A DNA stretch of 64,000 nt. It comes from an uncultured Clostridia bacterium (lineage in GTDB: Bacteria; Bacillota; Clostridia; TANB77; CAG-508). This document shows positions 5,454 to 33,853 of this stretch, in pieces. The stretch spans positions 35,871 to 99,870 of the forward strand of contig CALXKA010000001.1 in assembly GCA_944388765.1 (NCBI GenBank), in the 5' to 3' direction. The notes beneath the pieces were generated by a model. That model searched no databases. It was not told the origin of the DNA and saw nothing but the letters and a program-made list of their open reading frames with translations. Positions within the stretch are counted from its first letter, which is position 1. Each line of letters starts with the position of its first letter. The translations under genes and the position numbers were made by a program.

Positions 5454-5784
5454 GACCTTTCCTTACAATTTGACTAATATGATCATCATCTAAACTATAA
5501 TATACTACTTTCCCTTCTTTTCTAAATTTAACTAATTTTGCTTGTTTTAACAATCTTAATTGGTGAGATATTGCTGATTGTGTAGTTTGGACAATATTTG
5601 CTATGTCACATACACATAGTTCATTTTCCATGAGTGCATATATTATCTTCATTCTTGTTGAATCTGCAAACACTTTAAAAAATTCTGCTAAATCATAAAT
5701 CATTTCATCTTGTGGTATTTTCTTTTTTACTTCATTTACCACGTCTTCATGAAGTACTGTACATTCGAATAATTCTTCTTCCAT
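5431..5784 (-). CDS. cadC: ArsR/SmtB-family metalloregulator, CadC-like
   Basis: 117 aa. ELCVCDI metal-sensing motif and HTH (SHQLRLLKQAKLV). Confidence 0.85.
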   Translation of the reverse strand: MEEELFECTVLHEDVVNEVKKKIPQDEMIYDLAEFFKVFADSTRMKIIYALMENELCVCDIANIVQTTQSAISHQLRLLKQAKLVKFRKEGKVVYYSLDDDHISQIVRKGREHIEEL

Positions 5785-5850
5785 ATTTTCCTCCTTTCTA
5801 AATTAGGTCTTTTCCTTTTGAATATATATCTGTTTGATTTGTATTTGTTT

Positions 5851-5908
5851 GAATATATGATTAATTGTTCATATATTCATGATATGATTTTATTTCTATT
5901 TTGTCAAT
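5851..5908 (-). promoter_or_regulatory. Putative cad promoter (-35 TTGACA, -10 TATCAT on minus strand) with perfect 10-bp inverted repeat operator
   Basis: Minus strand TTGACA (plus 5903..5908), 18-nt spacer, TATCAT (5879..5884). Inverted repeat GAATATATGA-n8-TCATATATTC at 5851..5878 covers the predicted transcription start, as expected for an ArsR-family operator. Confidence 0.5.
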
Positions 5909-5945
5909 AGTTTTTCAAAAAATTATTACAAATGTTTTTAAATAA

Positions 5946-5981
5946 TAAAAAAGGCCTGCTTTATTTAGCAAACCTTTTTTA
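5946..5981 (-). terminator. Rho-independent terminator downstream of the KAP NTPase gene
   Basis: Minus-strand RNA folds AAAAAAGGUUUGC/GCAGGCCUUUUUU using G-U wobble pairs, followed by UUUUUUAUU. The plus-strand version would contain C-A mismatches, so it is strand-specific. Confidence 0.5.
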
Positions 5982-6038
5982 TTATCCTTCTTCTTCTACT
6001 TCAAATTGTGTTGTGCATCTTTGAGGGAAGGAAATTTA

Positions 6039-7469
6039 TTATATAATATTATTTATTTCATTTATCATATTATATACTTTTTTGTCATTATATGTTCCAT
6101 TTTCAAAAAGTGTATCTAAAAAATTAGTATTACTCATAATAAATTCAATAAAATTCTTACAAATAGAATCATCAAATAATCCAAGCCAATTATAATATTC
6201 TATAAATGCTCCTCCTTCAAGGTATTTAGCTGCTTTTAACTCTTTTATTGTTAATTTATATGAAGAAAACCTTACTAATAATTTAAATACTTCATATTTT
6301 TTTCCATTATTATAATTTAAATTACACTCCTTTTTATTATATTGCTCAAATTGATTTTCTAGTTTTCTTCCTGTGTTTCTATCATAATTTATTAATAATA
6401 TTTTATTATAAATTTTTTCCTTATTTTCTAATAATAAGTATTTATATTCGTCATTATGAAAAATGTGTATAATTATAAAATACAATACTAAAATAATATT
6501 ATATATATTACATAAGTTAATATCTTTTCTTATTAAATATTCTTTTATTGAAATATATTTTCTTAGCACTTTCTTTATATGTCTAGAATTGCTAAAAGCA
6601 ATACTAGACAAAAAATCTACAATTTTTTTCGCATCCTCATGGCTAATTTTCATAATCTTAACAATGCTGTCTTCAAAATTTTCTACATTTATATTATTGC
6701 TTATAATAAAATTAATAGGAAATATTTTTTCTAAATATTCATCTGCTTTGTTAAAATCATTATTATATTTATTTTGCAATGCTAAAGTAACAGCTTTTTT
6801 ATCTATTCCAATTATAAATATAATATTTTTATTTACAGATAATAGTAATTTTATAGAAGATATTAAATTAATAATATTTTCTGATTCACATCTATCCAAA
6901 TCATCTAAAAATATAACTAATTTTTTGTTATTAAAAGTCATTTTACTATATTCTTCTTCGAATTCATTTATTTTTTCCCACAAGCATTTATTATCTTCTA
7001 TCTTTTTTACTCTTTCTTCATCTAATTTTTGCACCTCATCTATAGCCTCTCCTGGCTTTATATTTATTATTCCTAAATTAATGTCTATTCCTTTTGCCAT
7101 ACTTTTTAATATACTATATCCTGTTTCTAGTATATTTTTTCCATTTTCCTTAAGCCTATTAATTTTCTTATTTTTAGTCATGAATTTTAACAATGAATAT
7201 GGTAAATTATCATCTTTTTCATATTTCCAAGTATCAAACCATACTGTTTCAAATTCATTTTTAGGCAAGTTACTTTCTATTGTTTTCATTAAACAACTTT
7301 TACCACTTCCCCATACCCCATATATTGCAATTAAATTATTTTTTTCTAATAATTTTTTATTATTTTCTAATTGTAAAAAATTACAAATTGCCATAGCTTT
7401 ATCATAAGTTCCAAACATATCATTTTCCCTATTTAATACTTTTATTTCTTCAATTAAACTTTCCTCCAT
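6039..7469 (-). CDS. KAP-family P-loop NTPase
   Basis: 476 aa. Walker A GVWGSGKS, Walker B/KAP signature VIFLDDLDRC. One hydrophobic segment after the NTPase core. More AT-rich than its neighbours. Confidence 0.75.
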   Translation of the reverse strand: MEESLIEEIKVLNRENDMFGTYDKAMAICNFLQLENNKKLLEKNNLIAIYGVWGSGKSCLMKTIESNLPKNEFETVWFDTWKYEKDDNLPYSLLKFMTKNKKINRLKENGKNILETGYSILKSMAKGIDINLGIINIKPGEAIDEVQKLDEERVKKIEDNKCLWEKINEFEEEYSKMTFNNKKLVIFLDDLDRCESENIINLISSIKLLLSVNKNIIFIIGIDKKAVTLALQNKYNNDFNKADEYLEKIFPINFIISNNINVENFEDSIVKIMKISHEDAKKIVDFLSSIAFSNSRHIKKVLRKYISIKEYLIRKDINLCNIYNIILVLYFIIIHIFHNDEYKYLLLENKEKIYNKILLINYDRNTGRKLENQFEQYNKKECNLNYNNGKKYEVFKLLVRFSSYKLTIKELKAAKYLEGGAFIEYYNWLGLFDDSICKNFIEFIMSNTNFLDTLFENGTYNDKKVYNMINEINNII

Positions 7470-7489
7470 TTACTTTCTCCTTTTTCATT

Positions 7490-8290
7490 TTATTTTAATA
7501 ATTTTGTTTCACTATCCTTTGTTAATATTTTCATTTGTGATATTGCTATTTGATTTAATTTATATAATCTGTCAGATTGTTGCATTCCTTCATTTATAAA
7601 TATTGAATTTGTATTTTCTAAATTTGCTAAACATATTAATTCATTTATACTTGCATAATCTCTTATATTCCCTTTTTTATTTGGATTCTTTTCTCTCCAT
7701 TCTTTTGCTGTCATACCAAATAATGCCATATTTAATACGTCAGCTTCTTCTGCGTATACTAGATTTACTTGCTTGCTAGTTAATTCTTTAGGTATTAAAT
7801 TATTTTTTATTGCATCCGTGTGTATTCTATAGTTAACTTTTGCTAAATCTCTCTTTGCATTCCATCCTACTTCTTTTTGTTCTTCTTGTTTTAATCTTTC
7901 AAATTCTTTAATTAAATATATTTTGAATTTTGGGCTAATCCACATTCCAAACTCAAAGGCTATATCCTTATGTGCATAAGTTCCTCCATATCTTCCTGTT
8001 TTTGCCACTATTCCAATTGCATTTGTTTTATTTGACCACTCTTTAACACTTATTTTGTAACTATTTAAACCTGCTTGACTTTTAATTATGGCGAATTCGC
8101 CATAATTAAAATTAGGATTATGCAATTCTTCCCATATTCCTAAAAATTCAATTGTATTTCTATTTCTCAACCAATCCGAAATAAAGAATTCACCATCCTT
8201 TGATTTTAGCATATCTGTCAAAGATATGTAATCTTCATTACCTTCGTTATAATAGTTTATTCTTGTATCTAATACTTCGAAATTTTTCAT
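7490..8290 (-). CDS. KilA-N domain protein (phage antirepressor-like)
   Basis: 266 aa. The N-terminal region resembles KilA-N/Bro-N DNA-binding domains seen in prophage antirepressors. Has its own promoter containing a Cheo box. Confidence 0.55.
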   Translation of the reverse strand: MKNFEVLDTRINYYNEGNEDYISLTDMLKSKDGEFFISDWLRNRNTIEFLGIWEELHNPNFNYGEFAIIKSQAGLNSYKISVKEWSNKTNAIGIVAKTGRYGGTYAHKDIAFEFGMWISPKFKIYLIKEFERLKQEEQKEVGWNAKRDLAKVNYRIHTDAIKNNLIPKELTSKQVNLVYAEEADVLNMALFGMTAKEWREKNPNKKGNIRDYASINELICLANLENTNSIFINEGMQQSDRLYKLNQIAISQMKILTKDSETKLLK

Positions 8291-8310
8291 AATATCACAT
8301 CCTTTTGCTA

Positions 8311-8339
8311 ATTTTATCGAACATATGTTTTATTGTCAA
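8311..8339 (-). promoter_or_regulatory. Promoter of the KilA-N gene with embedded LexA (Cheo) box
   Basis: Minus strand -35 TTGACA (plus 8334..8339) and -10 TAAAAT (plus 8311..8316). The spacer holds CGAACATATGTTTT (8318..8331), matching 12 of 14 positions of the Gram-positive SOS box CGAACRNRYGTTCG. Confidence 0.5.
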
Positions 8340-8377
8340 TAGAATATTTTTCTTTTTTATAAAAATAAAGCATATGA

Positions 8378-8566
8378 TCATAAATCATCATATACTTTAT
8401 TTTCTTTCTTAACTTCTATTTCAAAATCTTTAAGTGGCAAAGCCCACTTAACATTAAATTTTCTACCATTTATAATATTTTTCATTTGGTCTTTGTGTTT
8501 CGTGGAGATATTCTCAAAATGCTCTTTCTCATATGCTACAAAATATTCTACTTTTTCATCCATCAA
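8378..8566 (-). CDS. Hypothetical small protein (62 aa)
   Basis: The ATG overlaps the stop of the upstream ABC gene (ATGA), suggesting translational coupling. No recognisable domain. Confidence 0.35.
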   Translation of the reverse strand: MMDEKVEYFVAYEKEHFENISTKHKDQMKNIINGRKFNVKWALPLKDFEIEVKKENKVYDDL

Positions 8567-10384
8567 AGCTCGTCGAATTGACTATTATATAAATCTGCAT
8601 AAAATCCATTCTTTTCAAGTAATTTTTCATGAGTACCTTGTTCAACAATATCTCCATGGTTCATGACCAATATTAAATCTGCATTTTTTATTGTTGATAA
8701 TCTATGTGCAATTATAAAACTAGTTCTTCCTTTCATTAAATTATCCATAGCTGATTGTATTTGTATTTCAGTTCTTGTATCTATTGAACTTGTTGCTTCA
8801 TCTAATATTAATATTTTTGGATCTGCCAAAATTACTCTTGCAATAGTTAATAACTGTTTTTGTCCAGCTGATATATTAGTTGATTCTTCATTTATCAGTG
8901 AATGGTATCCATTTGGAAGTGTTTTGATAAAATGGTGTACATGTGCTGCCTTTGCTGCTTCTACTACTTCTGTATCTGTTGCGTCTTCTTTGCTATATTT
9001 AATATTATCTTTTACTGTTCCTCCAAATAGCCATGTATCTTGTAAAACCATACCAAACATTTTACGAAGCTCACCTCTATCAAAATCTTTTACGTTGTGA
9101 CCATCAACATCGATTTCTCCATCGTTTACATCATAAAATCTCATTAACAGTTTTACCATTGTTGTTTTTCCTGCACCTGTTGGTCCTACTATTGCTATTT
9201 TTTGTCCTTCTTTTACATCTGCATTAAAATCATTAATTATCATCTTATTTTCATCATATCCAAATTTAACATGTTTGAATTCTACATTTCCCTCTAATTT
9301 TGATGTATCTATGTTTCCTTTTGCTGTAATTACTTCTTCTTTTTCTTCTAAGAATTCAAATATTCTTTCTGCTGCTGCAACCATTGATTGTAGCATACTT
9401 GATATTTGTGCAATTTGGTTTATTGGTTGTGTAAATTGTTTATTATATTGTATAAAACTTTGTATATTACCTACTGTAATCGTACCATTTATTGCTAAAT
9501 ATCCACCTGCAACGGCAACTCCTACATATCCAATATTTGATATAAAATTTACAACTGGATGCATTAGTCCTGATAAAAATTGTGATTTCCATGCAGATTT
9601 ATATAACTCATTATTTGCTTTTTCAAAATCTTTGGTTACTTTTTCTTCTGCATTAAATACTTTTACAATATTTAATCCTCCATAGATTTCTTCTACTTGA
9701 CCATTTACATGTCCTAAATAATCTTGTTGTTTTACGAAATATTTTTGTGATCTTCCTACAATCATTTTCACTAATATTCCTGCAATTGGTAATATGACTA
9801 ATGATATTAATGTCATTTGCCAACTTATTGATAACATCATTACTAAAATTCCAATAATTGTACAAATAGATGTTATTATTTGAGTAATACTTTGATTTAA
9901 GTTCATGCTCAATGTATCAATGTCATTTGTTATTACTGATAGAACTTCTCCATTAGTTTTTTTATCAAAGTACTTCATAGGAAGTTTATTTATTTTTATA
10001 GCTATGTCATTTCTTAACTTATATGTGATTTTTTGTGTTACAGTAGTCATTGTAAATCCTTGAACGAAGGAAAATAATGCACTAATTATATATAATACAA
10101 TTAGAGTTAATGCAATCCCGTCCGACTTTTCCAAAATCTATTCCTGAACCACCTGATAATTTACTCATTAGTCCGTTAAAAATTTCTGTTGTTGCGTTAC
10201 CTAAAATCTTTGGTCCAACAATTGTAAAAATTGTACTTCCTATTGCAAACAATATTACTATAATTATCGCTATTTTATATTTAGCTAAATATGACTTTAT
10301 TAACTTTTTAGTGGTTTTCTTAAAATCTTTTGGCTTTTCTGTTGTTTGACCTCTTCTCATAGGTCCTCCCATTGGTCCTGGCAT
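8563..10384 (-). pseudogene. ABC exporter (fused TMD-NBD, MsbA/LmrC-like), interrupted by a +1 frameshift near 10115-10125
   Basis: ORFs 10082..10384 (N-terminus ...GIDFGKVGR) and 8563..10134 (IALTLIVLY...TMD...NBD) form a single exporter if one G/C is removed from the minus-strand CGGACGGG run (plus ATCCCGTCCG). Confidence 0.8.
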
Positions 10385-12652
10385 TTATTTTCCTCCTTTC
10401 TCGCCTAATTCTTCTTCTGATAATTGTGATAAGGCTATTTGTCTATATGTTTCGTTATTTTTCATTAGTTCTTCGTGTGTACCCATTCCTACCATTTTAC
10501 CTTCTTCAAGAACTATTATTTTATCTGCATTTAGAATTGTACTTATTCTTTGTGCTACGATTATGACTGTTTTATTCTTTGTTCTTGTTGATAATGCTTC
10601 TCTTAATTTGCTATCTGTTTTAAAATCTAATGCAGAGAAGCTATCATCAAATACAAATATTTCTGGATCTTTTGCAATAGCTCTTGCGATTGATAAACGT
10701 TGTTTTTGCCCTCCTGATACATTTCCGCCACCTTGTGCAATTGGGTCTTGATATTTCTTTTCTTTACCTTCAATAAATTCTGTTGCTTGTGCAATTTCTG
10801 CTGCCATTATCATTTGATCGTCTGACATATTTTCATCAGAATATTTGATATTTGACTCTATTGTTCCTGAAAATAATATTCCCTTTTGTGGTACAAAACC
10901 TATAATATCTCTTAAATCTTTTTGAGATACATCTTTTACATTTACACCATCAATACATAATTCTCCACCTGTTACATCATAAAATCTTGGTATTAAATTT
11001 ACTACTGTTGATTTTCCACTTCCTGTACTACCAATAATTGCTGTTGTTTTTCCTGGTTCTGCTGTAAAGTTAATATCTTCTAATATTTCTGTGTCTGCAT
11101 CTGGATATCTAAATGATACATTTTTGAACTCAACTAATCCCTTCTTGTCTGGATCAAAATTCTTTGTTTCTTTTTTATCTTTAATACTTGGTTCTTTTTC
11201 TATAACTTCATTTATACGTCTTGCAGAAACTGCTGCTCTTGGAAGCATAATTGAAATCATTGATATCATTAAAAATGCCATTACAATTTGCATTGTATAT
11301 TGAATAAATGCCATCATATCTCCAACTTGCATTACACCTTGGTCAACATTATGACCTCCAACCCATACTATTAATACCATTATTGAATTCATGATGAACA
11401 TTAAAAGTGGCATCATCATTGACATTGCTCTATTTACAAATATGTTTGTTTTCATTAAATCTTTATTTGCATTATCAAATCTAGCTTCTTCTTTCTTTTC
11501 TTTATTGAATGCTCTAATTACAGGTATACCTGTTAGAATTTCTCTTGAAACTTCATTTAATTTATCTACTAAATCTTGTAATTTCCTAAACCTTGGCATT
11601 GCTACTGCAAATAATGTTCCTACAATAAATAATATCGCAAGTATCGCAATTCCTATAATCCAGGCCATTGAGTTATCTGTACCTGTAATGACTTTTACAA
11701 ATCCTCCTATACCAATAATTGGTGCATATACAACTACTCTAAATAGTATTGCGATTAATTGTTGAATTTGTTGAATATCATTAGTGCTACGAGTAATTAA
11801 TGATGCTGTTGAAAATTCATTTAATTCTGCATTTGAAAATTTAATAACTTTTTTGAACACTTTGTCTCTTAATGTTTTTCCTAGTTTAGCTGCTACTTTT
11901 GATGATAAGAACATTATTGAAACAGCTGAAATCATACTTATAAGTGCTACACCTAACATTTGTAATCCAGACATAAAGATATAATCATTTTGAATTTTAT
12001 CTGTATCTACTCCTAAATTTTTATAAACTTGTTTTACTGATCCAACAGCTGCTTGTTCTTTTATCGAATCACTCATACTTTCTATTTGTTTTGTAGCTTC
12101 ATTAAGTATTTGATTCATTTGTTCTTCTGGCATTTGTGAAATTATTTCTAAAAGTGACATATTTTCTAAATATGTTTTTTGTTGTTCTGGAACATTTAAT
12201 AATATTTGTTCTTTTAAACTATTTGCTGTCTCTTCGTTTGTTATTGTTGTCATCTCTATAATTGGACCAGCTATAAGTCCTTCTAGATTTGTTTTCTCCT
12301 CTTCTTCTAATTCATTCAAAACATAGATATTTTTGTTTTCTACATTATAATCTTTTCCTAAATATTTATTAATTACTTTTTCTTGATGTTTATCTGGTTT
12401 TGAACCTACTAATGTATAATTATTTAAAATTTCTTTATCTTGTTCTGTAAATAATAAAAGTGTATCCATATTATCTTTTGATATAATATCTGGTGCTGGG
12501 CTTTCTATACCTCCTGATTGTATACCTTCATTTACAATTTTAGATGTATAATCTGGTAATGCTAGGTCTGTTGCTGCTTGAATACAAAGTAATATTACAA
12601 TTGCTATTACAGAACCTAGTGATTTTTTTAGATTTTTTAATACTTTTAGCAT
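10385..12652 (-). CDS. ABC exporter (fused TMD-NBD) with a roughly 180-aa extracytoplasmic insertion between TM1 and TM2
   Basis: 755 aa. Walker A GSTGSGKST, signature SGGQKQR, Walker B FVFDDSFSALD. Long hydrophilic segment from about residue 30 to 215 after the first TM helix. Partner of the downstream exporter in a heterodimeric arrangement. Confidence 0.85.
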   Translation of the reverse strand: MLKVLKNLKKSLGSVIAIVILLCIQAATDLALPDYTSKIVNEGIQSGGIESPAPDIISKDNMDTLLLFTEQDKEILNNYTLVGSKPDKHQEKVINKYLGKDYNVENKNIYVLNELEEEEKTNLEGLIAGPIIEMTTITNEETANSLKEQILLNVPEQQKTYLENMSLLEIISQMPEEQMNQILNEATKQIESMSDSIKEQAAVGSVKQVYKNLGVDTDKIQNDYIFMSGLQMLGVALISMISAVSIMFLSSKVAAKLGKTLRDKVFKKVIKFSNAELNEFSTASLITRSTNDIQQIQQLIAILFRVVVYAPIIGIGGFVKVITGTDNSMAWIIGIAILAILFIVGTLFAVAMPRFRKLQDLVDKLNEVSREILTGIPVIRAFNKEKKEEARFDNANKDLMKTNIFVNRAMSMMMPLLMFIMNSIMVLIVWVGGHNVDQGVMQVGDMMAFIQYTMQIVMAFLMISMISIMLPRAAVSARRINEVIEKEPSIKDKKETKNFDPDKKGLVEFKNVSFRYPDADTEILEDINFTAEPGKTTAIIGSTGSGKSTVVNLIPRFYDVTGGELCIDGVNVKDVSQKDLRDIIGFVPQKGILFSGTIESNIKYSDENMSDDQMIMAAEIAQATEFIEGKEKKYQDPIAQGGGNVSGGQKQRLSIARAIAKDPEIFVFDDSFSALDFKTDSKLREALSTRTKNKTVIIVAQRISTILNADKIIVLEEGKMVGMGTHEELMKNNETYRQIALSQLSEEELGEKGGK

Positions 12653-13488: not shown

Positions 13489-13584
13489 ATAATTCACTCC
13501 CATTCCTTCATTTTTTGATATATTATCATACAAACAAAAAAATGTCAAACATATTTTTGATATTTTTAAAATTTATTAGTAATT

Positions 13585-14064
13585 TTAATTTATTTTGACA
13601 AAACTGTCTCCAATCTCATCTCTCCATTTTTCTAAACTATCTATTCTAACATTTTGAAAATTCATTCTTGCTTTTTGAGTTTCTATTTCTCTTTTCAATA
13701 GAATATATTCTTTATTACATTTTAATTGATTTTCTAATATTTTATCATATCCGCTATCTATGTATTTTTCCATGTAATCAAATTGTTTAGTGATACTTTT
13801 GTCTATTGTATTTAAAATTTCAAATAACTCTTTTCTATCCTTTTTTCTTTGATTATTACTTCGATTCCACTTTCTATCATTTTCTTTCCAACGTTTTTCA
13901 TTTTGTTCCCATCTTCTATCGTTTTCTTCCCAGCGTTTTTCGTTCTGCTCCCATCTTTTATTATTTTCTTCCCAACGTTTTTCGTTCTCTTCCCATTTTC
14001 TGCTATTTTCTTTTCTAAAATCTCTCAATTCTGTTAAAATCGTTTTTGCTAGTACATCTTCCAT
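13585..14064 (-). CDS. Hypothetical protein with seven tandem heptad repeats (K/N)RWE(E/Q)N(E/D)
   Basis: 159 aa. Residues about 20-70 read RWEENEKRWEENNKRWEQNEKRWEENDRRWEQNEKRWKENDRKW. The DNA carries matching 21-nt direct repeats. Confidence 0.6.
   Translation of the reverse strand: MEDVLAKTILTELRDFRKENSRKWEENEKRWEENNKRWEQNEKRWEENDRRWEQNEKRWKENDRKWNRSNNQRKKDRKELFEILNTIDKSITKQFDYMEKYIDSGYDKILENQLKCNKEYILLKREIETQKARMNFQNVRIDSLEKWRDEIGDSFVKIN
13857..14010. repeat. About seven tandem 21-nt repeats inside the RWEEN-repeat gene
   Basis: Repeated TTCCCA(A/G)CGTTTTTC(A/G)TTCT-like units visible on the plus strand. Confidence 0.6.
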
Positions 14065-14311: not shown

Positions 14312-16075
14312 TTATACCTGTTGTACTCCTGTTAATTGTTCATAATATGCATTATATAATTTACTATAATATCCATCTTTATTTTGTAACAATTCATTAT
14401 GACTTCCTTGTTCTAATATTTCACCATTATTTAGAACAATAATTTTATCAACATCTATAATTGTAGATAATCTATGTGCAATAAATATAGATGTTTTTTC
14501 CTTTGAAATCTTGTCAACTGATTTTTGTATTAATTGCTCAGTTTTTGTGTCTATATTTGCCGTTGCTTCATCTAGTATAAATATAGCTGGATCATGTGCA
14601 AATATTCTGGCAAAAGCTAATAATTGTTTTTCTCCCGCTGAATATGAATTTCCTCTTTCACTAGCAATTTCATCCATTCCATGTGGTAATGAATTTATAA
14701 AATCCTCTGCTGATGATAGTCTTATAATGTCTTCAATATATTCATCTGATAAATTTTCGTCCAATCCGAATATTATCTTTTATACTTTTGGCAAATATAA
14801 ACGGATCTTGTAATACAATTCCTACTTTTTTCCTTAAATATCTTAAATTGATATCTTTAATATTTACTCCATCTAATAATATCTCTCCTTTTTGAATTTC
14901 ATAGAATCTATTAATTAAATTTATTATTGTTGTTTTGCCGTGATCCGAGTTTTCCCTACTAAGGCTATACTTTGCCCTGGTTCGATTGTAAAACTTACAT
15001 TTTTTAAAACCCAGTTTTCTTCCTTGTACGCAAACCATACGTTTTTAAATTCAATTTTTCCTTTGATGTTTTCTAACTTTTTACCTGATTCAAAATCTTC
15101 TAAATATTCTTTTTTATCTAATATATCATAAATTTTATTTATTGATACTACTGCTTCTTGTATAGTTTCAAAATTTTCTACTATACGGTTTATTGGCTCA
15201 AATATTTGTTTTAAATATGTAATAAATACATATATAACACCTACTTCAAGATTTATTCCCCAAAAATGATTAACACTTGCACAAACAATTATTGCTACCC
15301 CTATATTTTCAAATACAGTCATCATCCCAATTAAAAACCCTTCTGTAAATGCTGTTGGTATTCTTGATTTAAAAAATTCTTCTGATAACCCTGCACATTC
15401 TTTTTCTTTTTCATGTTGCCTATTAAATATTTTTATAATTTTAACCCCATATATTGATTCTGCTAAAAATACATTTAATTTCGTTTTTACATTTTTTGAA
15501 TATTCTCTTACTTTATTACTTATTCTTGTTATTATTACAGATGTTAATATAACGAAAGGAATTACTGCAAAACATAATAGTGCTAGTTCATAGCTTAAAG
15601 ATACCATTATTATAATTAAAGCTATAATCATAACTATATCTTTAACAAAAGTTGTTATTACTTCTTTAAAAAGTGTTGTGATATCTTCCACATCATTTGT
15701 TATTCTAACAAATAATGTGCCAGCTGGTGTTTTATCATGAAATGTTGTATTCGCATATTGTGCATATTTATATAACTTATTTCTAATAGAATATATTACG
15801 TTTTCTCCCATCATGCTTGTTGCTGTTGTTACAATAAAATCTAAGATATTTCCTATTAATACAATTGCTATATATATTGCTCCTATTGTTCCTATTGTCA
15901 TAATTCCCTTTTGCCATAGTCCTGCACTTAAATAGTCATCTATTACTATTTTTATTAAGTATGGTCTTATAACTTCGCATATGCTAATTATTATAGCTAA
16001 TATAGATATTATAATTATCGCTTTTTTCTGTGGCTTTAACATTTTTAATATTCTATGAATTGTCTGATTTTTCAT
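14312..16075 (-). pseudogene. ABC exporter (fused TMD-NBD) split into three ORFs by frameshifts at about 14938-14947 and 14765
   Basis: The TMD ORF 14924..16168 ends inside Walker A (LVGKT|RITAKQQ* where GSGKTT is expected). ORFs 14742..15038 and 14312..14764 carry the rest of the NBD (LSGGQ-like SAGEKQ, Walker B ILDEATANID, H-loop AHRLST). Two extra bases in the Walker A codons and one near NIG|LDENL break the frame. Confidence 0.8.
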
Positions 16076-16103
16076 ATTTTTTTCCTTTCTTTTGTTTATA
16101 TCT

Positions 16104-17849
16104 TTATTCCAATATGCTAGATTCTGTTTTTGTTGATTGTTGATCATAAAATTCTTTATATAAACCATTATTTTTTATTAGTTGTTCATGTTTTCCTTGC
16201 TCTATGATATTCCCGCCTTTTAATACTATTATTTCATCACTGTTTTTCACATCAGATACTTTGTTCGATATAATTATACATGTTTTTTTTCCTGAAAATT
16301 CTTTTATGTTGTCTAATAATGTCTGTGATGTTCTGTTATCTAATGCTGAAAAAGTGTCATCAAAAATTAAGATACTGCTATTTTTCAAAAAAGCTCTCGA
16401 AATTGCTACTCTTTGCTTTTGTCCTCCTGATAAATCTGTTCCTCTTTCTCCTATTTTAGTTTCAATTCCTTTTGGCATTTTAGCTATTTCATCATATATA
16501 ACTGCTTTTTTAGTACTATCCTTTATTTCATCAATTCTATACTCTTCTTTAAATAAACTTATATTGTCTTTTAAAGTCGATGAAAACAGAAAATTATCTT
16601 GTGTTATATAGCAAATGCTATCTCTTAAAATCTCTATTGGAATATCATTAATATCTTTTCCGTCTATTATAATTTTTCCTCTTGGGATACTATATAATCT
16701 TGTTAATAAATTCATTAGAGTTGTTTTTCCACTTCCAATCGTTCCTATAATTCCTAACGTTTCACCTTTTTTTATCTCTACATTTATATTTTCCAAGGCT
16801 TTATCTAATACTTCTGGATAATTAAAATTTAAATTCTTAATGCTAATGTCACCATTTAATGTATTCTCAAATTTCTTTTCTTTTGCATTTATTTTTTCTG
16901 TTTCTAATTCAAATACTTTATTTAATCTTTTATATGATATTTGTGCTCTTTTAAATCTTGCAATCAATGTTGGAAGCCAACTAACTGGTCCTACAAAAAG
17001 TCCTATATATCCATTAAAAGTAACTAATTCTCCTACTGTAATTTGTCCATCAACTACTAATTTTCCTCCAAATAATAATGCAATTGAATAGCAAAGTCCA
17101 AAACACAAATTAACAGTTGTCGTTAATAGATTAGAATATATATCTACTGTATTATCACTTTGTTTTACTTTACGGTTTTTTCGTATAAAGTCTTCCAATT
17201 GTGTTTTTTCACAAGCATATGCTTTTGTTGTTCTTATACTGTCTGTACTTTCTTGTATATATTCAGAAAGGGATGTAAACATATCTTGTGCTTTTGCAAA
17301 GCTTTTTTCTACTTGATTTTTTATCTTCACAATTAAATATGCTGCTATTAATATTGGAATCACTGTTACAATTGTTAAATATATATTTACACCATTTGCC
17401 ATTTGAAATATTGCGATAATAAATGTAAAAACAATTCTTGCTCCATGAGATATAATTCTGTATACCGCACTTCTTATTTCATTAGTATCCTTAACAAAAT
17501 AAGACATTATTTCTCCATTTTTAATGTTCTGAATTTCTTTAAATTTTAATTTTAAAAATCTTTCAAATAATTTTATTTTTATATCTCTTTCAAATCCTCT
17601 TGAAATTATTGTTTCTGTATATTTCCAAACCATTCTTACAATCAATAAAACAACACATATTCCTAAAAGGTAATATATGTTGTTTAATATATTTTGTTTG
17701 TTTGCTTCGATATTGTATAACATATCTACAATATCTCCTATTATTTTTGCAGGATATGTTAATAAATATATATTTAGTCCTATAAATATAAAATGTATTA
17801 ATGAAGTTAATTTATATTTTTTTAGTGAATCTATTATTACTTTTTTCAT
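16104..17849 (-). CDS. ABC exporter (fused TMD-NBD), intact partner of the interrupted downstream gene
   Basis: 581 aa. Walker A GTIGSGKTT, signature LSGGQKQR, Walker B LIFDDTFSALD. Confidence 0.85.
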   Translation of the reverse strand: MKKVIIDSLKKYKLTSLIHFIFIGLNIYLLTYPAKIIGDIVDMLYNIEANKQNILNNIYYLLGICVVLLIVRMVWKYTETIISRGFERDIKIKLFERFLKLKFKEIQNIKNGEIMSYFVKDTNEIRSAVYRIISHGARIVFTFIIAIFQMANGVNIYLTIVTVIPILIAAYLIVKIKNQVEKSFAKAQDMFTSLSEYIQESTDSIRTTKAYACEKTQLEDFIRKNRKVKQSDNTVDIYSNLLTTTVNLCFGLCYSIALLFGGKLVVDGQITVGELVTFNGYIGLFVGPVSWLPTLIARFKRAQISYKRLNKVFELETEKINAKEKKFENTLNGDISIKNLNFNYPEVLDKALENINVEIKKGETLGIIGTIGSGKTTLMNLLTRLYSIPRGKIIIDGKDINDIPIEILRDSICYITQDNFLFSSTLKDNISLFKEEYRIDEIKDSTKKAVIYDEIAKMPKGIETKIGERGTDLSGGQKQRVAISRAFLKNSSILIFDDTFSALDNRTSQTLLDNIKEFSGKKTCIIISNKVSDVKNSDEIIVLKGGNIIEQGKHEQLIKNNGLYKEFYDQQSTKTESSILE

Positions 17850-18082: not shown

Positions 18083-19273
18083 TTACTTCACAAGTCTTTT
18101 AGTTTCTTTTGCTATCATTAATTCTTCGTTAGTAGGAATTACATAAACTTTTACTTTTGACATTTCCTTTGAAATTACTTTTTCTTCTCCTCTCATATTG
18201 TTTGCATCTTCATCAAGTTCAACTCCCATGAAAGTTAATTGTTCACAAATTCCTTTTCTTATATTAATTTGGTTTTCTCCAACTCCACCAGTAAATATAA
18301 TGTAGTCTATGCCATTCATTGCTACTGCATATTTAGCAATATAACTTGCTATTGCATATTTAAATGATTCCATAGCTATTTTAGCTGTTTCATTATCATT
18401 ATAACTTTCTGTTTCTATTACTCTAAAATCTGGTGCTAATCCAGATATTCCTGACACACCTGATTTTTTGTTTAAAATATTCTCCATTTGGTCTGGTGTT
18501 AATTTTTCCTTTTTCATTATGTATAATAATATTGATGGATCTAAATCTCCACTTCTTGTAACCATAGGAATTCCTCCAAGAGGTGTTAGTCCCATACTGG
18601 TGTCTACTGATTTTCCTCCTTGTATTGCACAAATACTTGATCCTTGTCCTAAATGGCAAGTTACAATTTTTAAATCTTCTATATTTTTATTTTCTATTTC
18701 TGCTAATCTTTGTGATACATACATGTGCGAAGTTCCATGGAATCCATATTTTCTTACTCCATATTTTTTGTAATATTCATATGGAATTGGATAAATATAT
18801 CTTTCTTTTGGAATTGATTGATGAAATGCTGTATCAAATACTCCTACCATTGGCTTTCCTGGCATTACATTTTTACAAGCTTCTATTCCTAGTATACATG
18901 CTGGATTATGTAATGGTGCTAAGTCTGAATATTCTTTTAATACTTCTTCTACTTTTTCATCAATTAATACGGATTCTGATATTTTTTCTCCACCATGCAC
19001 TAATCTGTGTCCAATAGCTTCTATTTCATCTAAGCTATCAATAACTTTATATTCTGGATTTGTTAATTGTTTTAATGTAAATTCTATTGCTTCTGTATGA
19101 TTATATGCTGGATTTTCTATTTGTATTTTTTGTCCATTTACTTTGTGTGTAATAAAAGCTTCTTTTTCTCCTATTCTTTCATATTTCCCTGATGCTAAAA
19201 CTTCTTCTGTTTCCATTTTTATTAATTGGTATTTTAATGATGAACTCCCACAGTTTAAAACTAAAATTTTCAT
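18083..19273 (-). CDS. ackA: Acetate kinase, copy 1
   Basis: 396 aa. Acetokinase family; N-terminus MKILVLNCGSSSLKYQLI. Confidence 0.9.
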   Translation of the reverse strand: MKILVLNCGSSSLKYQLIKMETEEVLASGKYERIGEKEAFITHKVNGQKIQIENPAYNHTEAIEFTLKQLTNPEYKVIDSLDEIEAIGHRLVHGGEKISESVLIDEKVEEVLKEYSDLAPLHNPACILGIEACKNVMPGKPMVGVFDTAFHQSIPKERYIYPIPYEYYKKYGVRKYGFHGTSHMYVSQRLAEIENKNIEDLKIVTCHLGQGSSICAIQGGKSVDTSMGLTPLGGIPMVTRSGDLDPSILLYIMKKEKLTPDQMENILNKKSGVSGISGLAPDFRVIETESYNDNETAKIAMESFKYAIASYIAKYAVAMNGIDYIIFTGGVGENQINIRKGICEQLTFMGVELDEDANNMRGEEKVISKEMSKVKVYVIPTNEELMIAKETKRLVK

Positions 19274-19300
19274 TTAATTTATTCCTCCCTTATTTTTCTT

Positions 19301-20491
19301 TTATTTAACTAATTTTAGTGTTTCTCTTGCAATCATTAATTCTTCATTTGTTGGAACAACATATACTTTAACTTTTGAATCTTTTGTAGAAACTTCTAAT
19401 TCTTCTCCTTTTACATCATTTACTTTTTTGTCTATTTCAACACCTAAGAATTTTAGTTGTTCACAAATTGCTTCTCTTGATATAGGTCCTTTTTCTCCTA
19501 TACCCGCTGTAAATGTTAATACATCTATTCCTCCCATTGCAACTGCACATCTTGCTATATAACAAGCTGTTAAATAATGAAAATTATCCATTGCTAGTTT
19601 TGCATGAGTTCCACCTGATAACATTTCGTTTTCTATATCACGCATATCTATTGATATTCCTGAAATTCCATATAATCCTGATTCTTTATTTAATATGTAG
19701 TTCATATCATCAATTGATAAGTTGCATTTTTGCATTAAAAATGTAACTATGGAAGGATCTAAATCTCCACTTCTACTTCCCATTGGAATTCCTCCAAGTG
19801 GTGTAAGCCCCATACTTGTTTCAACTGATTTTCCATTTTTTATTGCACATACGCTACAACCTTGCCCTAAATGACAATTTACAATTTTTAACTCTTTAAT
19901 ATCTTTATTTATCAAATTTGCAACTCTATTTGCTACATATTGGTGTGAAGTTCCATGGAATCCGTATTTTCTTATTCCATATTTTTTGTAATAATTATAT
20001 GGAATTGGGTATATATATTTTTCTTTTGATATAGTTTGATGAAATGCTGTATCAAATACTGCAACCATTTTCATATTTGGTACAATTTTTTTACAAGCCT
20101 CTATTCCTAATATTGCTGCTGGATTGTGCAATGGTGCCAAATCTACACATTTTCTAATTTCTTCAATAACTTCATCTGTAATAATTACAGAATTGCTAAA
20201 TTTTTCTCCTCCATGAACGACTCTATGCCCAATTCCTCCAAGCTCATCTAAATCTTTTATTACTCCGTAATGTTCATTAGTTAATCTTGATAACACAAAT
20301 TTTATTGCTTGTTCATGATTTTTAGCTATGTGTTCAAATTTGTGTTTTTCTCCATTTACCTTATGTGTTAGAAAAGAATTTGGTTGTCCTATTCTTTCAA
20401 AATATCCTTTTGCTAACATTTCTTCTGTTTCCATATCAATTACTTGATATTTTAATGATGAACTCCCTGAATTTAAAACTAATATTTTCAT
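19301..20491 (-). CDS. Acetate/propionate kinase paralogue, copy 2, in tandem with copy 1
   Basis: 396 aa. N-terminus MKILVLNSGSSSLKYQVI. Same family as the downstream ackA but clearly diverged. Confidence 0.85.
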   Translation of the reverse strand: MKILVLNSGSSSLKYQVIDMETEEMLAKGYFERIGQPNSFLTHKVNGEKHKFEHIAKNHEQAIKFVLSRLTNEHYGVIKDLDELGGIGHRVVHGGEKFSNSVIITDEVIEEIRKCVDLAPLHNPAAILGIEACKKIVPNMKMVAVFDTAFHQTISKEKYIYPIPYNYYKKYGIRKYGFHGTSHQYVANRVANLINKDIKELKIVNCHLGQGCSVCAIKNGKSVETSMGLTPLGGIPMGSRSGDLDPSIVTFLMQKCNLSIDDMNYILNKESGLYGISGISIDMRDIENEMLSGGTHAKLAMDNFHYLTACYIARCAVAMGGIDVLTFTAGIGEKGPISREAICEQLKFLGVEIDKKVNDVKGEELEVSTKDSKVKVYVVPTNEELMIARETLKLVK

Positions 20492-31499: not shown

Positions 31500-31693
31500 A
31501 ATTTCCTGTGCTTCTATATTTATTTAAGGCTATATTCCATAGTTTAATCGCTATTACTCATAAAACAATAGCAATTATTGATATAATTACAATTTCCATA
31601 ACTTACTCCTTATTATACAATAGTCTTTACTTTTTACTGATATATTTTACTATAATTATTACATTTTTTCAATGATATTTTACAAACAAATAT

Positions 31694-31721
31694 TTGACAT
31701 TTTATTTTTTTGTGATATAAT
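31694..31721 (+). promoter_or_regulatory. Sigma-A promoter with extended -10 upstream of the radical-SAM gene
   Basis: TTGACA (31694..31699), 16-nt spacer, TGaTATAAT (31713..31721). Directly downstream TGTACAAATGTTCG matches 11 of 14 positions of a Cheo box. Confidence 0.55.
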
Positions 31722-31754
31722 GTGTACAAATGTTCGCAATTAGGAGTGGCTGTT

Positions 31755-33113
31755 ATGGATATATATGATAAGTTGAAAATACTAGCAGATTCAGCTAAAT
31801 ATGATGCCTCTTGTAGTTCTAGTGGAAGTAATAGAAAAAATGTAAATAATGGTATTGGCAATGGTCATGTTTCTGGTATTTGTCATAGCTGGGGTGCAGA
31901 TGGTAGATGTATTTCTTTACTTAAAATTTTAATGACTAATTCATGTATGTATGATTGTAAATATTGTGTTAATCGTGCTACAAATTCCATTAGAAGAGCT
32001 ACATTCACTCCACAAGAAATTGCTGATTTAACGATTAATTTTTATAAAAGAAATTATATAGAAGGCTTATTTTTAAGTTCTGCTGTTATAAAGTCACCTG
32101 ACTATACTATGGAAATGTTAGTTAAAACTGTAACTATTTTAAGAAACGAATACAATTTTAATGGTTATATTCATTGCAAGACAATTCCTGGTTGTAGTCA
32201 AGAATTAATTGATAGTTTAGGTAGTTTAGTTGATAGAATGAGTATTAATATAGAGCTCCCTTCTAATGATAGTCTAAAATTACTTGCTCCTCAAAAAGAG
32301 AAAACAGGTATCTTAAAACCAATGAGTTATATTTCTAATAATATTGAGCAAAATAGATTAATTAAATCTAGATTTAAACCTAAATTTGTACCAGCTGGTC
32401 AGACTACTCAAATGATTATTGGTGCAACTCCTGAAAGTGATTTGAAGATTTTAAAACTTTCAGAAGGATTGTATCAAAAACTCAAATTAAAAAGAGTATA
32501 TTATTCTGCATATGTAAGTGTAAATAATGATAAGAATTTGCCTACACTAGAATCCCCTCCTTTGCTTCGTGAAAATAGGCTTTATCAAGCTGATTGGTTA
32601 TTACGTTTTTATGGTTTTAAAGCTGATGAACTTTTAAATAAAAGTCATCCAAATTTTAATCATATATTAGATCCTAAATGTGATTGGGCACTAAGAAATA
32701 TTGATAAATTTCCTATTGAAATAAATACTGCTAATTATTTTACTTTACTTAGAATCCCTGGTATAGGAATTATATCTGCAAAAAAAATTATTAAAGCAAG
32801 ATTGAACTTTTTATTAAATTTTGATGATCTGAAAAAATTAGGTGTTGTTTTGAAAAGAGCTAAATATTTTATAACATGTAAAGGAAAATATTTTGATAAA
32901 GTATATAAATTTAATCAAAATTTTATCGAAACAAATTTAATCTATCAAGAAAGAATTGACAGTAATAGAAAGATAAATTTTGAACAATTATCACTTTTTA
33001 GTAATAGTTATGATAATAATTATAGTTATTTAACAAAAGAAAAATCTTTATTATTTAAAAGATTACAACCTACAAAGGAGGATAAAATAAAATGTCTAAC
33101 TGGAAGCTTATAA
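31755..33113 (+). CDS. Putative DNA modification/repair radical-SAM protein (TIGR03916-like) with C-terminal helix-hairpin-helix
   Basis: CxxxCxxC cluster CMYDCKYC. HhH segment LLRIPGIGIISAKKIIKAR. Start chosen at MDIYDKL (RBS AGGAGTGG); the ORF track begins at 31722. Confidence 0.75.
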   Translation: MDIYDKLKILADSAKYDASCSSSGSNRKNVNNGIGNGHVSGICHSWGADGRCISLLKILMTNSCMYDCKYCVNRATNSIRRATFTPQEIADLTINFYKRNYIEGLFLSSAVIKSPDYTMEMLVKTVTILRNEYNFNGYIHCKTIPGCSQELIDSLGSLVDRMSINIELPSNDSLKLLAPQKEKTGILKPMSYISNNIEQNRLIKSRFKPKFVPAGQTTQMIIGATPESDLKILKLSEGLYQKLKLKRVYYSAYVSVNNDKNLPTLESPPLLRENRLYQADWLLRFYGFKADELLNKSHPNFNHILDPKCDWALRNIDKFPIEINTANYFTLLRIPGIGIISAKKIIKARLNFLLNFDDLKKLGVVLKRAKYFITCKGKYFDKVYKFNQNFIETNLIYQERIDSNRKINFEQLSLFSNSYDNNYSYLTKEKSLLFKRLQPTKEDKIKCLTGSL

Positions 33114-33853
33114 ATAAAACATATGTATATGATGGAAGTTTTGATGGTTTTTTAACTATTGTTTTTGATTCATATTCTAATAAGGTCTTACCTCAAAAGA
33201 TTTATAGTTACAAAGATTATGTAGAAAATTTTTTAGATAAGGTCTTGTATATAAAAACAGATTATGAAAAGTCAAAAAGAGTTTTTAATGGTATTGAAAA
33301 AAATATTTGTTATGAATCTTTATATAATAGCTACAATGCTTTTCTTTCAAATGAAAAAGATAAAGAAATACATATATTAAAATATTTGTGTAATGGATTT
33401 GATGTTGGTCCTAAGATAAATAATATGATTACTACTTCTTATGTTTTTAAAGTAATTAATATGAGAAGAAAGGCCTTAGCAGAATGTCATAAATTAAAAG
33501 GATTGTTACGTTTTCAAGAAATTGGCAATAATCTTTGTTATTCAAGTATTCATCCTGATAATAATATTCTTGAACCTTTGGGGCATCATTTTATTAATCG
33601 ATTGCCTTCTATGAATTTTATTATTCATGATAAAATTAGGGATCTTTGCTTTATATATAATTGTAAAGAATATAAAATTGTTGATAGTAAAAATTTGAAA
33701 ATATCAGAGATATCAGATGATGAAAAGATTTATCAAGATTTGTGGAAAATATTTTTTAAAACCATTGCTATTAAAGAAAGGAAAAATTCTAGATGTCAAA
33801 TGCAATATATGCCTAAGAAATATTGGAAAGATTTAATTGAAATGTCAAATTAG
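33092..33853 (+). CDS. DUF4130-domain protein (TIGR03915-like), usual partner of the DNA-repair radical-SAM protein
   Basis: 253 aa. Overlaps the upstream gene by 22 nt, indicating translational coupling. The partner identification rests on this pairing and on family resemblance. Confidence 0.6.
   Translation: MSNWKLINKTYVYDGSFDGFLTIVFDSYSNKVLPQKIYSYKDYVENFLDKVLYIKTDYEKSKRVFNGIEKNICYESLYNSYNAFLSNEKDKEIHILKYLCNGFDVGPKINNMITTSYVFKVINMRRKALAECHKLKGLLRFQEIGNNLCYSSIHPDNNILEPLGHHFINRLPSMNFIIHDKIRDLCFIYNCKEYKIVDSKNLKISEISDDEKIYQDLWKIFFKTIAIKERKNSRCQMQYMPKKYWKDLIEMSN

Follow-up and report, generated by a model that had tools for sequence, protein, structure and literature searches.

We examine a 64,000-nucleotide stretch of chromosomal DNA from an uncultured Clostridia bacterium (hereafter, the window; ~25% GC), in which a gene for a KilA-N domain protein is followed on the minus strand by a gene for a KAP-family P-loop NTPase. 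The KAP gene begins 20 nt past the KilA-N stop, has a ribosome-binding site of its own and is probably co-transcribed with the KilA-N gene. ABC-transporter genes flank the pair on one side and an arsR/cadA operon on the other. A lexA gene lies 4.5 kb upstream of the KilA-N promoter, and an operon at 31755-33853 contains a radical-SAM gene (TIGR03916) and a DUF4130 gene (TIGR03915) annotated as “putative DNA modification/repair.” The nearest relatives of the window are “Clostridium sp. CAG:273” and uncultured gut Clostridia MAGs. Coordinates are collected in Table 1, and loci gathered for comparison are referred to by L numbers.

Table 1. Window positions of the genes and of the promoter elements read or predicted around them (a dot marks the palindrome at the KilA-N promoter, listed without strand)
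Feature	Position	Strand	Evidence or remark
KAP-family P-loop NTPase, 476 aa, PifA/QatA-like	6039..7469	-	Pfam PF07693, 6e-27
KilA-N domain protein, 266 aa, first operon gene	7490..8290	-	Pfam PF04383, 2e-24
Ribosome-binding site AAAGGA	8300..8305	-	9 nt ahead of the ATG at 8290
-10 hexamer TAAAAT	8311..8316	-	sequence and promoter scan; kept in orthologous promoters
LexA-type (Cheo) box, predicted	8318..8331	.	CGAACATATGTTTT on the plus strand, AAAACATATGTTCG in gene orientation
-35 hexamer TTGACA, promoter of the KilA-N/KAP operon	8334..8339	-	11/12 promoter match; kept in 16 orthologous promoters
AT-rich hairpin and U-run, terminator of the preceding ABC-transporter operon	8361..8404	-	-20.9 kcal/mol, z = -6.6
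lexA, 217 aa	12835..13488	-	TIGR00498, 1e-69; ORF bounds checked
Probable LexA box of the lexA promoter, CAAAAATATGTTTG	13546..13559	-	overlaps -35 TTGACA (13548-13543)
Box 1, radical-SAM/DUF4130 promoter, CAAACAAATATTTG	31683..31696	+	overlaps -35 (31694-31699)
Box 2, radical-SAM/DUF4130 promoter, TGTACAAATGTTCG	31723..31736	+	directly after -10 (31716-31721)

The KilA-N protein matches the PADLOC profile PDC-S22 over its full length (3e-129, residues 3-264 on positions 6-272 of 281); PDC-S22 is a candidate single-gene defense family, with candidate status only. The protein also matches PHROG 2657 (phrog_2657, “transcriptional regulator”) at 4e-60. More than 8000 protein clusters match it at E < 1e-10, the best 120 of them all at least 79% identical. 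Species-representative genomes contribute at least 591 matches, of which the best 80, at 66-98% identity, come from Firmicutes, Bacteroidota, Proteobacteria, Verrucomicrobiota and archaeal MAGs, the last including Altarchaeum and Woesearchaeota. Such a distribution suggests that a gene under strong constraint has been transferred rampantly in recent times. The KilA-N gene is among the most conserved horizontally spread genes found here, and it is classed solely as a defense candidate. At 75 loci, the neighbors of the homologues are diverse and rich in defense genes: parts of type I and type III restriction-modification systems, DUF1016/YhcG, PemK, BrxC/D-like ATPases, RhuM, TerB_N and Cas3 of type I-F. 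No common regulator gene was found adjoining the homologues in the neighborhoods examined. An AlphaFold2 model of the protein built from 38 close homologues reached a pLDDT of 40, and a profile search of PDB sequences aimed at the C-terminal domain gave no match. In the literature on PDC-S22, on KilA-N with LexA and on TIGR03916, we found no paper linking KilA-N/PDC-S22 to LexA.

The second protein matches several profiles of the KAP family (PADLOC PDC-S20, 1e-28; PifA, 3e-17; QatA, 5e-19; NCBIfam QatA, 1e-19). F-plasmid PifA is a KAP-family NTPase that excludes phage T7, and to our knowledge PifA is not under LexA control. The gene resembles both the PifA and the QatA families, yet it differs from QatA in falling far under the family cut-off, and a Qat system was rejected (70.7 bits against a cut-off of 600, with no QatBCD partners nearby). 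The original prediction had spoken of a KilA-N/KAP module. That description does not extend to the family, as the linkage of KAP to KilA-N is confined to the genus of the window and its close relatives, and in one of these (L005) the KAP gene is truncated.

Read from the sequence, the minus strand from 8339 to 8311 consists of TTGACA, a 17-nt spacer (ATAAAACATATGTTCGA) and TAAAAT (8311-8339 on the plus strand, ATTTTATCGAACATATGTTTTATTGTCAA), which a consensus scan ranks as the top promoter in 5700-8700, with an 11/12 match. The palindrome occupies the spacer, 2 nt past the -35 hexamer and 1 nt ahead of the -10 hexamer. The claim that a Cheo box with a 12/14 match sits between these two hexamers on the minus strand is thus confirmed in the sequence: CGAACATATGTTTT and CGAACRNRYGTTCG agree at 12 of 14 positions, although the consensus is that of B. 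subtilis and the clade's own boxes are AT-shifted. Within the box, GAACATATGTTT at 8319-8330 fits GAAC-N4-GTT[C/T] with an AT-rich center and is the sole exact match in the window. The ribosome-binding site is kept in L001-L007, L077 and L096, and the terminator hairpin in L001-L007. Since this hairpin lies just upstream, the KilA-N gene has its own, insulated promoter. Two further observations concern this interval. Immediately ahead of the terminator is a conserved ORF of 61-62 aa with no family match (8378-8566, minus strand), which has a 4-nt overlap with the ABC-transporter stop. In the strain variant L096, a GC-richer insertion of 104 nt (~5790-5895, corresponding to ~8350 of the window), conceivably a small RNA or a mobile element of small size, separates the upstream terminator from the KilA-N promoter.

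Taken alone, the match of the site at 8318-8331 is not significant. The window contains the pattern GAAC-N4-GTTY (GAACNNNNGTTY) once, where 1.53 occurrences are expected, and sites within two mismatches of CGAACNNNNGTTCG four times, where 1.49 are expected. With a weight matrix built solely from the lexA-promoter boxes of the clade, the site ranks fourth in the 64-kb window, but its score of 12.9 bits equals the mean best score of shuffled windows. It is the precise placement of the site within the promoter, together with its conservation in orthologous promoters, that goes beyond chance. For the longer pattern CRAAC-N4-GTTYG, the four best sites of the window, which is 86% coding, are in the intergenic promoters of the KilA-N gene, lexA and the radical-SAM operon, plus one coding site.

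To follow the site across the family, we compared 80 genomic KilA-N loci (the best 80 of at least 591 genome matches). A RAAC-N4-GTTY site is found in the promoters of many Clostridia copies among these loci. The layout of the window (-35, 2 nt, 14-nt box, 1 nt, -10) is identical in 16 distinct orthologous promoters aligned on the -35 hexamer, which form three sequence groups: promoters like that of the window (including L077), those of L010-L025, and that of Desulfitobacterium sp. L040. In these 16 promoters AAC and GTT are invariant and the central four nucleotides variable. Either A or G is found at position 2 and either T or C at position 13, and the flanks cannot be aligned. In L077, promoter, box and ribosome-binding site accompany the KilA-N gene in a different genomic context. 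Elsewhere the placement differs: the box is directly after the -10 hexamer in L008 and L009, CAAACATATGTTCT lies at about -85 in L041 (Lachnospiraceae), and a perfect AGAACGCTTGTTCT lies at about -154 in L051 (Aminipila). Strains with an identical KilA-N protein carry the box variants AGAACATATGTTTG, AAAACATATGTTTG, AAAACAAACGTTTG and GAAACATATGTTTG, and the outer bases of near-identical strains read GAAC..GTTT, AAAC..GTTC or AAAC..GTTT. As the outer G and C vary in this way, the binding strength is uncertain.

Of 43 low-GC loci, 12 have the AAC-N4-GTT core in the 65 nt ahead of the gene, against a background frequency of 0.03 per 120 nt across these loci. For RAAC-N4-GTTY, the binomial probability is ~1e-17 for 12/43 if each locus counts as an independent case; counted by lineage (5 of 25), it is 2e-7. 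The three groups of identical geometry may share one ancestral promoter, in which case there are fewer independent events than loci, and we therefore read the enrichment chiefly as a phylogenetic footprint rather than as a large number of independent gains. The distribution over hosts is uneven: the core is present in 12/14 low-GC loci titled Clostridia or Clostridium and in none of the 19 titled Bacilli, Tenericutes or Erysipelotrichaceae. Because the Clostridia- and Bacilli/Tenericutes-titled loci were compared at equal protein identity (77-82%), the absence of the core in the latter points to a host factor of Clostridia, not to a self-operator of KilA-N.

Other sites came to light at these loci. 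Three Bacilli-titled loci without the LexA-type box at the KilA-N gene (L026, L027 and L029) have another palindrome in common, TGATATTGGCAAACCAATATCA, which lies ~60-90 nt ahead of the KilA-N homologue and may be bound by a different host regulator as its operator. RAAC-N4-GTTY boxes at L015:5889, L009:6385, L010:1927, L026:5793 and L040:3641 precede MazF/PemK-like, YgjP-like and Bro-N genes adjoining KilA-N homologues; the Bro-N gene of L040, a pseudogene, has a promoter (AGAACGTACGTTTGATATAAT) that mirrors that of the KilA-N gene. SOS control may be common to several defense-island genes.

The LexA of the window is intact, with a winged-HTH domain, an Ala-Gly site and the Ser and Lys of an S24 protease; the AG, GESM and VKTF segments align to solved LexA structures. 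The original prediction had pointed to a lexA gene about 4.5 kb away. A genuine lexA is there, and in L008 one is found 2 kb from the KilA-N locus, but L005-L007 have no lexA within 7 kb, so the proximity is incidental and is not evidence of regulation. A clade set of 80 lexA loci (L100-L179; LexA identity 79-94%) yielded 52 distinct promoters, in which CAAAN-N4-GTTTG (GTTTGACA) overlaps the -35 hexamer amid diverged flanking sequence. These boxes are degenerate, with the left-half C in 14/52 and the classical GAAC in 0/52. The comparison indicates that an AT-shifted Cheo palindrome, CAAAC-N4-GTTTG, is the LexA motif in these 25% GC Clostridia, and regulon scans with the B. subtilis consensus would overlook such a motif in this low-GC clade. 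The KilA-N box of L012 is a 14-mer, AAAACTTTTGTTTG, that recurs as the lexA box of L113, L138-L142 and others. Only lexA and the radical-SAM operon, among the 12 TTGACA-type promoters of the window, have a box on the -35 hexamer, which is therefore no generic promoter feature. The one recA match among all loci collected is a Flavobacteriaceae recA. Just upstream of lexA (13585-14064, minus strand) lies a gene for a 159-aa protein with tryptophan-rich repeats (RWEENxKRWEQNEKRW) and no family match, which is missing in strain L099.

The radical-SAM/DUF4130 operon offers a second view of the motif in the same organism. DUF4130 and SplB-like radical-SAM genes have been placed in SOS gene neighborhoods (PMC3765255). 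Box 1 of this promoter scores 16.8 bits with the lexA-derived matrix, above the shuffled maximum. The promoter is identical between strains, so the informative comparison is with more distant relatives, and in six of these (L228-L237; 79-87% protein identity) both boxes are kept with variable centers, box 2 reading [GTAC/AAAC]-N4-GTT[C/T]G. The boxes at lexA (CAAAAATATGTTTG) and at this operon (CAAACAAATATTTG and TGTACAAATGTTCG) are thus AT-shifted and degenerate but kept in relatives, and with two conserved LexA-type boxes the operon is a probable member of the SOS regulon.

Validated operators from a related host provide the closest reference. In C. difficile, the lexA, recA and ruvC operators, validated by SPR, read GAAC-N4-GTTT and the uvrB operator GAAC-N4-GTTC (PMC4234289), and the most significant dyad in Firmicute lexA promoters is AAC-N4-GTT (PMC2248561). 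The box at the KilA-N promoter resembles the C. difficile operators in the form of its core (GAACATATGTTT) and in being a palindrome with a 4-nt AT-rich center that overlaps the promoter of the gene it would regulate, and the LexA proteins are homologous in winged-HTH domain and S24 protease. It differs from them in its target, an accessory KilA-N/KAP operon with no repair gene, and in belonging to a clade whose motif is AT-shifted, with the outer G and C dispensable or variable.

KilA-N homologues also occur in hosts with a different SOS motif. In a Cellvibrionales MAG (L039, ~6930-7810), a homologue lies between cas1 and the type I-F cas2-3, with TACTGTTTAAATGTACAGT, a CTGT-N8-ACAG box of the gammaproteobacterial (E. 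coli) type, ~60 nt upstream of its start. No SOS box was found upstream of four other gammaproteobacterial plasmid homologues and one E. coli homologue (the boxless hosts being Pasteurella, Aeromonas, Xenorhabdus, Photorhabdus and E. coli). Cross-phylum support thus comes down to a single case, and a general cross-phylum SOS switch for the KilA-N family is weakly supported. As a separate observation, E. coli 2022CK-00450 (L184 2689-4894) carries a 52%-identical homologue in an island directly beside dinD, with a half SOS box (CTGTAT) upstream. Kinship of the KilA-N protein to DinD was itself considered and rejected (E = 0.39).

Phage-borne copies are known from Staphylococcus phage EW and from Streptococcus satellites, where they lie in lysogeny modules and adjoin an integrase. 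Of 40 phage-borne homologues scanned, 38 have no box in the 200 nt upstream. The other two each have an upstream box, one inside the first 100 nt and one beyond that distance. In the flanks of the KilA-N/KAP locus itself, no phage genes, integrase or repressor were found, and the window as a whole contains no candidate for a cognate phage repressor.

These observations bear on an alternative raised by the original prediction, which likened the operon to the LexA-controlled antirepressors of temperate phages: the KilA-N protein might be such an antirepressor, in a phage or prophage remnant, that inactivates a phage repressor upon SOS induction. A LexA-type box in the promoter, the known occurrence of KilA-N domains in phage regulators and the homologues in the lysogeny modules of phage EW and the satellites are all in keeping with this. 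The flanks, however, are free of phage genes, integrase and repressor, the protein matches PDC-S22 over its full length, and the family stands alone in the chromosomes of many phyla, often within restriction-modification, BREX or CRISPR loci; moreover, phage-borne copies sit in operons with a repressor or integrase, and 38/40 are boxless in the 200 nt upstream. With no prophage present, we place the KilA-N operon outside the class of LexA-controlled phage antirepressors, and we regard the antirepressor explanation as most improbable. Nor do we give much credence to chance, by which AACATATGTT, an AT-rich palindrome that happens to occupy a promoter spacer where the genome is 25% GC, would resemble a Cheo box and bind nothing. 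About 1.5 such matches are indeed expected per 64 kb, the matrix score of the site equals the shuffled-window maximum, and its G and C positions drift between strains. Against this, AAC and GTT are invariant around a variable N4 over 16 promoters with diverged flanks, the enrichment upstream of orthologues is at least 10-fold, and L008, L009, L041 and L051 carry boxes in other places, which makes a coincidence very unlikely.

The palindrome could also serve another repressor, either KilA-N itself by autoregulation or another host regulator that recognizes AAC-N4-GTT, with DNA damage irrelevant. Pfam describes KilA-N as a DNA-binding domain, and the promoter, box and ribosome-binding site move with the gene into a different context in L077, as a self-operator should; yet a near-identical KilA-N domain is found without the box in all 19 Bacilli/Tenericutes-titled MAGs, where a self-operator should have traveled along. 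For a different host regulator, it can be said that box-like sites also lie ahead of the MazF-like, YgjP-like and Bro-N neighbors, which are not classical SOS genes. However, no common regulator gene adjoins KilA-N, the motif (once as the identical 14-mer) is present on lexA promoters and on the promoter of a DNA-repair operon, and the gammaproteobacterial copy has the LexA box of its own host instead. We consider control by another repressor unlikely. That the palindrome at 8318-8331 is a real operator for the host LexA is, in our judgment, the likely reading.

On that reading, the KilA-N and KAP genes are probably SOS-inducible. The proposal that LexA at this box makes both genes damage-inducible, as put forward in the original prediction, draws its strength from the comparative promoter evidence, whereas the box match by itself stays at the level of chance. 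In undamaged cells, a LexA dimer on the palindrome would occlude the -35 and -10 hexamers and exclude RNA polymerase. DNA damage would give rise to RecA filaments, at which LexA would cleave itself at its Ala-Gly bond; once LexA is cleaved, the near-consensus sigma-70-type promoter would fire and the KilA-N and KAP NTPase genes would be transcribed. The outcome we infer is not prophage antirepression but damage-triggered defense or abortive infection, in which a DNA-binding KilA-N protein would act with a PifA-like ATPase. As both products match candidate anti-phage genes (PDC-S22 for the one, PDC-S20 and PifA-like for the other), a role in defense or abortive infection is likely.

LexA-controlled antirepressors of temperate phages include Tum of coliphage 186, GfoA and GfhA of the Salmonella Gifsy prophages and AntC of N15. 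By analogy, the KilA-N operon would share with them the arrangement of an accessory gene on mobile DNA that is silenced by the host LexA and released by damage. It differs in having neither a prophage nor a cognate repressor, in a product that belongs to a standalone family found in defense islands, and in that no sequence relationship to these antirepressors is shown. LexA also regulates accessory and toxin genes such as E. coli dinD, tisB, symE, the colicins and the integron intI. These resemble the present case as non-repair genes under SOS control by a promoter box; they differ in motif class (CTGT-N8-ACAG), and DinD is unrelated in sequence.

Two other features of the window deserve mention. 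The ABC-transporter genes at 8563-12652 and 14312-16168 (L090-L097) are in fragments (755 + 100 + 495 aa and 414 + 98 + 150 aa). The same splits are seen in independent metagenome assemblies, and L002 and L005 have an intact 607-aa version; because the splits recur across independent assemblies, they are apparently real frameshifted pseudogenes of the lineage and not sequencing errors. At 18083-20491 (minus strand), acetate kinase is encoded twice, by tandem paralogues of 396 aa each that adjoin a phosphotransacetylase.

LexA boxes in promoters are textbook knowledge, and the proposed mechanism, shared with other Gram-positive SOS operators, is itself ordinary. What is unusual is the target gene, a very widely distributed KilA-N gene, and not the type of control. 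A broader proposal, that SOS control is a selected property of the KilA-N family PDC-S22 and that with KAP it forms a LexA-gated anti-phage or anti-prophage module, is possible but doubtful. If it is true, arming of the module would require cleavage of LexA upon DNA damage, phage replication or prophage induction, and LexA-gated defense would be a new regulatory class for defense genes. If LexA gates KilA-N, SOS signaling would be linked to defense-island genes in abundant uncultured gut Clostridia, and DNA damage would provide a handle on when a widespread gene acts.
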